Shown piece after piece: positions 40,990 through 41,321 of a stretch of 64,000 nt of DNA. Both the position numbers and the translations under genes were made by a program. Location of the stretch: assembly GCF_932526225.1 (NCBI RefSeq), contig NC_064047.1, forward strand, positions 1,817,027-1,881,026, read 5' to 3'. Below the pieces are notes generated by a model. It made no database searches and was not told the DNA's origin. It saw only the letters and a list, made by a program, of their open reading frames with translations. The stretch is from Nematostella vectensis (taxonomy: Eukaryota). Positions within the stretch are counted from its first letter, which is position 1, and the number at the start of each line of letters is the position of its first letter.

Positions 40990-41216
40990 AATACTTAACA
41001 CAAAGACTTTTAAGTGTTATCTGTTTTGGTGTGTTAAAAATATTTTCAAGCTCCGAAGTAGCCTAGTAGAGGGCACCACACAACTTTACAAGGCAGCCTC
41101 CAACAAGCTGCAGAGCTCTGGATTCTTTCTGAATAAGGCACAATTTAACACACAGACTTTTAAGTGTTAACTATTTTGGTGTGTTAAAAATATTTTCAGG
41201 GGAGAGAAATCTTCAG
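40990..41216 (+). repeat. About 175-bp tandem duplication of the [intron 3' end + acceptor + first about 100 nt of exon] of the small gene's internal exon
   Basis: 40993-41125 is near-identical to 41168-41300. The upstream copy lacks a donor: after GGCACA it runs straight back into intron sequence. Confidence 0.8.
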
Positions 41217-41321
41217 CTCCGAAGTAGCCTAGTAGAGGGCACCACACAACTTTACAAGGCAGCCTCCAACAAGCTGCAGAGCTCTGGATTCTTTCTGAAT
41301 AAGGCACAGGCTGCTGCTGAG
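41217..41321 (+). CDS. Internal exon of the small gene (LRSSLVEGTTQLYKAASNKLQSSGFFLNKAQAAAE)
   Basis: The frame is open, preceded by tattttcag/cttcag acceptors and followed by a GAG|GTAAAT donor. Its phase joins the terminal exon. I could not close the phase relationship to exon 1, so an intervening exon may have been missed. Confidence 0.35.

Follow-up and report, generated by a model that had tools for sequence, protein, structure and literature searches.

The locus and the BLOC1S3 gene model

The stretch of DNA considered here, hereafter the window, comprises 64,000 nucleotides (nt) of Nematostella vectensis (RefSeq assembly GCF_932526225.1, contig NC_064047.1, positions 1,817,027 to 1,881,026 of the forward strand), and positions given below are counted from its first letter. 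Within the window lies BLOC1S3, a gene in which the end of intron 2 and the beginning of exon 3 occur twice, head to tail. While giving a corrected model of this gene, the present analysis assesses the origin of the duplication and its consequences for splicing, as well as the tandem arrays of the divergent neighbouring gene, ASCC3. The structure is very probably a young tandem duplication within N. vectensis BLOC1S3, unseen in four other anthozoan genomes, whose upstream copy has become a disabled decoy.

BLOC1S3 is encoded on the + strand by four GT-AG exons (Table 1), and the spliced four-exon model equals, residue for residue, an N. vectensis protein of 190 amino acids (P0001; EDO46662.1 / XP_001638725.1 / UniProt A7RPC6). 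P0001 was the best match in a homology search with two joined pieces of the gene, at 92 % identity across the entire query, and its sequence (...KHDT PMHRKL R ERNLQLRSS...) pointed to a 20-nt microexon. Both pieces also match the Pfam family BLOC1S3 (PF15753) above its curated cut-off of 27 bits. The open reading frame (ORF) of exon 1 (39602-39913) covers profile positions 2-63 (E=1.4e-11, 45.1 bits), and the exon 3 peptide covers positions 100-138 (E=1.3e-7, 32.2 bits), with the latter match beginning at the E of (R)ERNL; PF15753 is also the family precomputed for P0001. Since the two matches fall at 2-63 and 100-138 of the profile, coding sequence had to be missing between exon 1 and exon 3. 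The first-pass annotation, which could not close the reading frame here and suspected a missing exon, was right on this point, as the microexon at 40182-40201 restores the frame. Its PFHRKL/PLHRKL motif is conserved among homologues, with which P0001 aligns end to end, and a corresponding microexon occurs in Actinostola (~9774-9821 of locus L002). Besides adding the microexon, the corrected gene model places the acceptor AG of exon 3 at 41198-41199. The true acceptor is thus ttttcag|GGGAGAG (41199|41200), the upstream one of the two AGs in the downstream copy.

Two database entries for this gene family deserve mention. One source names P0001 / XP_001638725.1 a 'ribosome biogenesis protein BOP1 homolog', which disagrees with its Pfam match and is apparently a misnomer. 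For Actinostola sp. cb2023, the 140-amino-acid BLOC1S3 annotation (P0002; L002 8001-15398) derails past the microexon (...PFHRKLPHIFGYSKDE...); the true positions of exons 3 and 4 in the Actinostola gene are L002 11678-11809 and 13106-13201.

Table 1. Features of BLOC1S3 and the tandem arrays of ASCC3 that hold a splice junction within the repeat unit
Feature	Position	Strand	Details
BLOC1S3 exon 1	39602-39912	+	ATG at 39602; ends in phase 2, GAT AC|gtaagt; matches Pfam and P0001
BLOC1S3 exon 2, 20-nt microexon	40182-40201	+	ctgtacag|ACCTATGCACAGGAAGCTTA|gtgagt; encodes (T)PMHRKL(R); required for the exact match to P0001
Upstream copy, intron-derived, 56 nt	40993-41048	+	ends ...atattttca, acceptor G gone; TTATC at 41017-41021
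Upstream copy, exon-derived, 94 nt	41049-41142	+	donor-less pseudo-exon within intron 2
Downstream copy, intron-derived	41143-41199	+	ends at the true acceptor ttttcag|, AG at 41198-41199
GGGGAGAGAAATCTTC, 16 nt	41199-41214	+	acceptor G plus first 15 exon bases; codes (R)ERNL; downstream copy only
BLOC1S3 exon 3, 122 nt	41200-41321	+	GG plus 40 codons, ERNLQ...AAAE; donor GAG|gtaaat; duplicated portion 41200-41308
BLOC1S3 exon 4 with stop	41969-42088	+	EVAYQSKVILEDL...KYSSS*
ASCC3 array, acceptor side	29181-30404	-	unit 91 nt, 13.5 copies; acceptor + 63 nt exon
ASCC3 array, acceptor side	21896-22380	-	unit 142 nt, 3.4 copies; 83 nt intron + acceptor + 59 nt exon
ASCC3 array, acceptor side	27753-27965	-	unit ~44 nt, ~5 copies; acceptor + 20-27 nt exon
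ASCC3 array, donor side	6329-6410	-	unit 18 nt, 3.2 copies; ~7 nt exon + donor + 11 nt intron
ASCC3 array, donor side	10746-11133	-	unit 36 nt, ~11 copies; 18 nt exon + donor + 18 nt intron
ASCC3 array, donor side	12448-12809	-	unit 114 nt, 3.2 copies; ~62 nt exon + donor + ~50 nt intron
ASCC3 array, donor side	14824-15154	-	unit 102 nt, 3.2 copies; ~18 nt exon + donor + 84 nt intron
ASCC3 array, donor side	20343-20935	-	unit 64 nt, 9.3 copies; 53 nt exon + donor + 11 nt intron
ASCC3 array, donor side	30593-30808	-	unit 68 nt, 3.2 copies; 17 nt exon + donor + 51 nt intron

Anatomy of the duplication

The first-pass annotation had reported a tandem duplication of an acceptor and about 100 nt of exon at 40990-41321, and repeat detection, self-BLAST, MAFFT alignment and base-by-base comparison all bear this out. 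The structure, 316 nt as a whole, is a head-to-tail direct repeat of two copies, i.e. copy 1 at 40993-41142 (150 nt) and copy 2 at 41143-41308 (166 nt), which abut without a spacer at a period of 150 nt (166 nt before the deletion discussed below). The duplicated exon part measured 109 nt, of which 94 are left upstream, and these 94 nt (41049-41142 and 41215-41308) are 100 % identical between the copies. Within the 56 intron-derived nt there are four mismatches (copy 1/copy 2): 40994 C/41144 T, 41003 A/41153 C, 41020 T/41170 A and 41023 G/41173 A. The only indel is the 16-nt segment GGGGAGAGAAATCTTC (41199-41214), present in copy 2 alone and appearing as a single 16-nt gap in the MAFFT alignment. 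Copy 1 ends GGCACA|ATTTAAC, the last seven bases being the start of copy 2, and no GT donor occurs there; copy 2 continues into GGCTGCTGCTGAG|gtaaat. Neither the duplication junction nor the site of the 16-nt deletion shows microhomology.

When the exon region was compared by BLASTN with the 5 kb around it, the match had E = 4e-50, which excludes a repeat by chance. Repeat detection returned two direct blocks in a common register, including a 54-nt block (40995-41048 versus 41145-41198) with 94 % identity, and self-BLAST merged the blocks into one 164-column alignment (40995-41142 versus 41145-41308), to which the base-by-base comparison adds two bases leftward. The repeat was detected via seed extension and self-BLAST; Tandem Repeats Finder, run on 39-43 kb, missed it because there are just two copies with an indel between them.

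The duplication is also present, base for base, in the 2007 assembly GCA_000209225.1 (scaffold DS469525.1; L001). L001 and positions 34602-46520 of the window differ by 3 single-nucleotide polymorphisms (SNPs), none of them in BLOC1S3, and by one 1-nt indel within a G-run. A gap of 582 Ns in L001 (L001 11099-11697) corresponds to 14 closed bases in the window (45700-45730), which marks the window as a different, later assembly. The gap lies at a G-run plus (GGGT)n in an intron of the matrix metalloproteinase gene downstream. That two haplotypes or overlapping contig ends were placed in tandem by an assembler might be considered, given that the differences between the copies (intron SNPs and an indel, with an identical exon) look like allelic variation. 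However, the same structure and junction occur in the N-gapped 2007 assembly and in the newer, gap-closed one, which rest on different data; there are no Ns near the repeat; a single Sanger or long read can cover 316 nt; and a haplotype without the 16 nt would be missing the acceptor of an essential exon together with five of its conserved codons. An assembly artefact is therefore highly improbable.

Polarity of the difference between the copies

The 16 nt that distinguish the copies consist of the G of the acceptor AG followed by GG GAG AGA AAT CTT, which codes for (R)ERNL. Full-length homologues from transcript-like contigs of ~1 kb (P0006-P0008) read P[FL]HRKLRERNL[EV]LR[ST]D[LI]VEG without interruption over the exon junctions, with conserved segments such as RKLRERNLELR and RKLRERNLVLR. 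Exon 3 is single-copy in Actinostola (L002), in two anthozoan-like ENA contigs (L003/L004 and L005) and in the coral Desmophyllum pertusum (L007), the match in the last being at the protein level only. At the nucleotide level, exon 3 starts as ag|GAGAAAAAAAT, ag|GAGAACGGAAC and ag|GGGAAAGAAAT in L002, L004 and L005, respectively. In these three, the acceptor is at the identical position (ag|GR GAR ARN AAY), exon 3 is 122 nt long with 40 codons, and intron 2 splits the identical codon position. None of the four other anthozoan genomes examined (L002, L004, L005 and L007) carries the exon 3 duplication.

Since (R)ERNL is conserved in homologues and exon 3 starts at the same acceptor elsewhere, the 16 nt are ancestral, and the upstream copy underwent a deletion. 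The first-pass annotation had instead read the difference as a 17-nt insertion into the downstream copy that created two alternative acceptor AGs. The downstream copy does have two AGs 17 nt apart, but the segment itself is 16 nt of ancestral coding sequence, with protein and exon structure conserved across anthozoans. In addition, the annotated protein derives from the first AG only, and the second (41215-41216) belongs to the glutamine codon CAG, such that splicing there would shift the frame and end in ...RKLTPK*. These observations refute a gain in the downstream copy, and no scenario considered here is less probable. The closest relative in the databases has only ~45-50 % protein identity, with Scolanthus and Edwardsiella outside the comparison; for lack of a closer relative, the four intron substitutions cannot be polarized.

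Consequences for splicing

These data define the duplication as follows. A 166-nt segment, in which 57 nt from the end of intron 2 are followed by the first 109 nt of exon 3, was copied once, head to tail, with the intronic part including the polypyrimidine tract, the probable branch point and the acceptor AG. The upstream copy became intron 2 sequence, lengthening that intron by 150 nt; no intron was created, because the position of intron 2 is ancestral. At birth, the upstream acceptor would have been identical to the real one, and its predicted product, ...NKAQFNTQTFKC*, lacks the C-terminal quarter of BLOC1S3. Later, the upstream copy lost 16 nt, namely the G of the AG and 15 exon bases. 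Since only the downstream copy runs on into the remainder of exon 3 and the donor, only the acceptor at 41199|41200 gives the conserved protein. In agreement with the first-pass annotation, copy 1 is donor-less, running into ATTTAAC, and lies outside the coding sequence; the model that skips it and takes copy 2 as the real exon reproduces P0001 exactly.

The two copies now differ in their predicted splice signals. The best branch-point-like motif of the functional copy, TTAAC (41167-41171), is the only perfect match to the yUnAy consensus in the AG-free zone that precedes the acceptor, and its probable branch A, as predicted from that consensus, is at 41170, 29 nt from the AG. In the decoy, the corresponding sequence is TTATC (41017-41021), with the A replaced. 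The deletion also left a weak, regenerated AG in the upstream copy (caAG|C, 41049-41050), turning CAG|G into AAG|C, a poorer 3' splice-site context by general metazoan preferences. Splicing at this AG or at the one at 41215-41216 would join phase 1 to phase 0 and yield a protein of 113 amino acids ending ...RKLTPK*, the stop coming after three codons. Because splicing to the upstream AG would be out of frame and meet a stop so soon, transcripts of that kind are probably removed by nonsense-mediated decay.

The same prediction opens the way for a functional role, in which the upstream copy would be a decoy whose regulated use, as a 'poison' 3' splice site, lowers BLOC1S3 output via nonsense-mediated decay. 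The persistence of the AG at 41049-41050 with the same polypyrimidine tract, and a stop that falls upstream of two exon junctions, would suit such a role. However, the absence of the duplication from the four other anthozoan loci means that there is no conserved regulatory device, the context of the AG has become weaker, and the best branch-point motif is gone, all of which makes regulation by the decoy very unlikely. A second use of the upstream copy, as a cassette exon, would need a cryptic donor, and inside the copy there are only weak GTs (GAA|GTAGCC and CTA|GTAGAG). One reasonable GT, TTG|GTGTGT at 41179, was rejected as a donor, as it is 21 nt from the true acceptor and so too close. An Rfam scan of the whole window returned zero matches, and the conservation of the copies is thus not due to an intronic RNA gene.

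The reading of a young duplication with a disabled upstream decoy is retained, with the further implication, judged from the sequence, that the decoy acceptor is unused and that the duplication is selectively nearly neutral. Several points weigh against it. Non-use of the decoy acceptor is deduced from reading frame and conservation, and a transcript-derived variant of N. vectensis BLOC1S3 was not found in the protein collection, with the exact-protein look-up giving the 2007 scaffold only; the 90 % protein cluster of P0001 has one member. The two assemblies differ by only 3 SNPs across ~11 kb and so probably come from the same laboratory lineage, and they are silent on fixation in the species. 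Lastly, all four substitutions as well as the deletion fall within the 3' splice-site module and none within the 94 exon-derived bases, a clustering (Fisher P = 0.018-0.047) that simple neutral decay does not predict. Possible causes are selection against the decoy, gene conversion by the real exon, a higher mutation rate in AT-rich intron sequence, and chance.

The first of these options amounts to active silencing of the decoy. Once two equal, competing 3' splice sites had arisen, selection would have favoured mutations that disable the upstream one, with the 16-nt deletion (AG|G) and the change from A to T at the branch point representing compensatory evolution. Besides the clustering, it accords with the deletion taking out exactly the G of the AG, with the T at 41020 standing in place of the A of the sole perfect yUnAy motif in the AG-free zone, and with the truncation that an intact upstream acceptor would cause. 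However, the events are very few and the test was picked post hoc, the direction of the substitutions is not polarized by an outgroup, the branch point is a prediction, and the deletion recreates an AG one base downstream (caAG|C). Moreover, purifying selection on the functional exon part alone halves the divergence expected there, and AT-rich intron sequence may have a higher mutation rate. Many decoy donors of ASCC3, described below, remain as strong as the true donor, and silencing is therefore not required. Silencing is possible but tentative, and it would refine rather than exclude the reading of a young duplication with a disabled decoy.

For BLOC1S3 itself, the duplication is of little consequence, since it leaves the protein intact and the added copy is intron sequence in decay. 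It is valuable as a clean, datable case of a whole 3' splice-site module duplicated beside the original: the AG of the spare copy is gone, as is probably its branch point, but the remaining exon-derived bases still match the real exon completely.

Tandem arrays in ASCC3 and in the window

As the first-pass annotation had indicated by speaking of the same class of event in more than one gene, the same or a mirror-image event recurs in ASCC3, the divergent neighbour encoded on the - strand (3993-38921). The exons of ASCC3 were mapped with full-length homologues from a representative search; a search with the N-terminal exon had returned only an unrelated 92-amino-acid fragment, and a second search only fragments of <400 amino acids. 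When the arrays were printed in the register of their period, 9 of the 22 tandem arrays of ASCC3 proved to hold a splice junction inside the unit (Table 1), and the decoy sites form runs of as many as 13 acceptors or 9 donors of equal strength. In all nine, only the site adjoining the rest of the exon keeps repeat sequence out of the mRNA. For the donor-side arrays at 12448-12809 and 20343-20935, in which the continuation was read, read-through runs into an in-frame stop; at 20343-20935, it is met within the first decoy unit past the true donor.

Individual arrays show how far this goes. Each unit at 29181-30404 joins the acceptor tattgtag| to the ~63 nt with which the exon encoding VLSSQSMIRIVGLSATLPNYL begins, and the true exon is the last copy; the decoys are ~97 % alike mutually and ~85 % like the true exon. 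At 20343-20935, where the exon ends ...GRTASHFYIKYDTIE, six decoys retain GAG|GTAAGG and are as strong as the true donor. Further arrays start 4-25 nt from a junction (e.g. 15986-16104 and 13439-14081), and the one at 16395-17547 stops one base before the acceptor AG, its units having CAC for CAG. Several ASCC3 introns are largely copies of their own exon edges, splice signals included.

Within the window, 35 tandem loci with a period of at least 7 cover 20.6 %. By the same measure, arrays of period at least 7 cover 4.0 % of the orthologous region in Actinostola, 1.3 % in L004, 8.5 % in L005 and 4.8 % in Desmophyllum. By simple arithmetic, a random 166-nt duplication in the 2.5-kb BLOC1S3 gene, with its six junctions, has a ~40 % chance of covering a junction, and so the single BLOC1S3 event needs no special explanation. 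For ASCC3, a null with uniform founder position, wholly exonic placements excluded, was made progressively more generous and gives 2.15 expected junction arrays for the current gene (probability of 9 or more, 7e-5), 2.89 with the arrays collapsed (7e-4), 3.87 with introns capped at 1 kb (6e-3) and 4.89 with introns capped at 500 nt (0.03). This excess was computed post hoc for one gene, from arrays classified by eye on an approximate exon map, and it is reported as an unexplained observation, not as a finding.

Whether the BLOC1S3 duplication is one case of a systematic preference of N. vectensis tandem duplications and minisatellite arrays for splice junctions is doubtful, this being rated somewhat below the silencing of the decoy. 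If true genome-wide, such a pattern would imply either a junction-targeted mechanism of duplication (e.g. polymerase pausing or breakage) or selection for arrays of decoy splice sites, and it would amount to a natural experiment, on a large scale, in how the spliceosome chooses one correct site among identical neighbours. The ASCC3 pattern bears on intron growth as well as on splice-site choice among identical competitors, and it is this pattern, over BLOC1S3 itself, that is worth following up.

Neighbouring genes and minisatellites

ASCC3 (start 38921, - strand) and BLOC1S3 (start 39602, + strand) are arranged head to head, as they are in each of the four other anthozoan genomes examined. Where both starts are annotated, the gap between them is 680 nt in N. 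vectensis, ~150 nt in L003/L004 and ~110 nt in L007. With the arrangement conserved and the starts ~0.1-0.7 kb apart, the sequences suggest that the two genes share a bidirectional promoter.

Downstream of BLOC1S3, at ~43700-46950 on the + strand, lies a short matrix metalloproteinase gene. Its signal peptide exon is near 43700, the PG-binding exon (44209-44427) contains the cysteine switch PRCGMPD, and the catalytic exon is at 46011-46376 (Pfam Peptidase_M10, E = 4e-35). Beyond it are large minisatellite blocks at 47079-51585 and 61339-63602, with units of 28, 69, 44, 50 and 12 nt and a very strong strand asymmetry (GC skew down to -0.65). Both strands of these blocks carry long repeat ORFs free of stops, but, as judged from the ORF listing and not from a Pfam scan, no evident protein-coding gene.

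Comparison with known systems

Internal tandem duplications that include a splice junction were reportedly described by Gao & Lynch in 2009 (PNAS 106:20818, cited second-hand). Intragenic tandem duplications that carry splice signals and are removed by splicing constitute an established class (PMC3443670, PMC3265369, PMC2891723). Like the internal tandem duplications of that class (PMC3443670), the BLOC1S3 repeat is short and head to tail, carries a splice signal, and leaves the protein unchanged as the spare copy departs with the intron. Its unit spans an authentic junction, with 57 nt of intron 2 (AG included) on one side and 109 nt of exon 3 on the other, as judged from P0001 and three genomes, and comparison of the four-exon model with the annotated 190-residue protein indicates that the spare copy is intronic and the coding sequence unchanged. 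Unlike those cases (PMC3443670), BLOC1S3 gains no intron; rather, an ancestral intron has grown by 150 nt, and the spare copy is already decaying.

A related process is the gain of an intron through tandem duplication of an exonic AGGT segment, i.e. the Rogers model (PMC3265369, PMC2891723, PMC4974935), which involves the same mutation and the same rescue by splicing. Examples include potato RdRp (PMC4974935), and the process is treated by Hellsten et al. 2011 (PMC3265369) and Lehmann et al. 2010 (PMC2891723). In the Rogers model, however, the duplicated segment is wholly exonic and supplies a new donor-acceptor pair, whereas the BLOC1S3 segment already held a real acceptor. Nor is there a new intron position relative to other species, as that of intron 2 is common to L002, L004 and L005.

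Tandem exon duplication is said to give rise to mutually exclusive exons, a subject attributed to Kondrashov & Koonin 2001 and Letunic et al. 2002, and BLOC1S3 resembles such genes in that exon sequence is tandemly repeated within one gene. Mutually exclusive copies, however, are complete exons in a common phase, each with an acceptor and a donor of its own, whereas the upstream copy in BLOC1S3 has no donor, has lost its original acceptor and retains only an AG that is out of frame. In NAGNAG motifs and other nearby alternative 3' splice sites, two close AGs occur at an exon start. The start of BLOC1S3 exon 3 likewise has two AGs, 17 nt apart, but the second is out of frame, lies within a conserved codon and, judging from the sequence, shows no sign of use; rather than a translatable alternative, it would give the frameshifted ending described above.

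The decoy can also be compared with human disease pseudoexons and cryptic 3' splice-site decoys (PMC8819188, PMC2095810), in which an intronic lookalike of an exon edge competes with the authentic site. The human pseudoexons stem from a point mutation in an unrelated intron, whereas the BLOC1S3 decoy is a literal copy of the authentic site. Nor is it a conserved poison exon, the duplication being absent from the four other anthozoans.

As for the genomic setting, two published accounts document tandem-repeat richness in N. vectensis and sea anemones (Naamati et al. 2009, PMC2805694; PMC12070523), with tandem repeat sequences making up 1-28.4 % in the Actiniaria repeatome (PMC12070523). Term searches of PMC2805694 and PMC12070523 gave no description of junction-seeded arrays. 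The richness documented there is consistent with the 20.6 % of the window that tandem arrays occupy (PMC2805694, PMC12070523). Set beside these systems, the BLOC1S3 event, with no visible effect on the protein, is an ordinary one and belongs to a known class.

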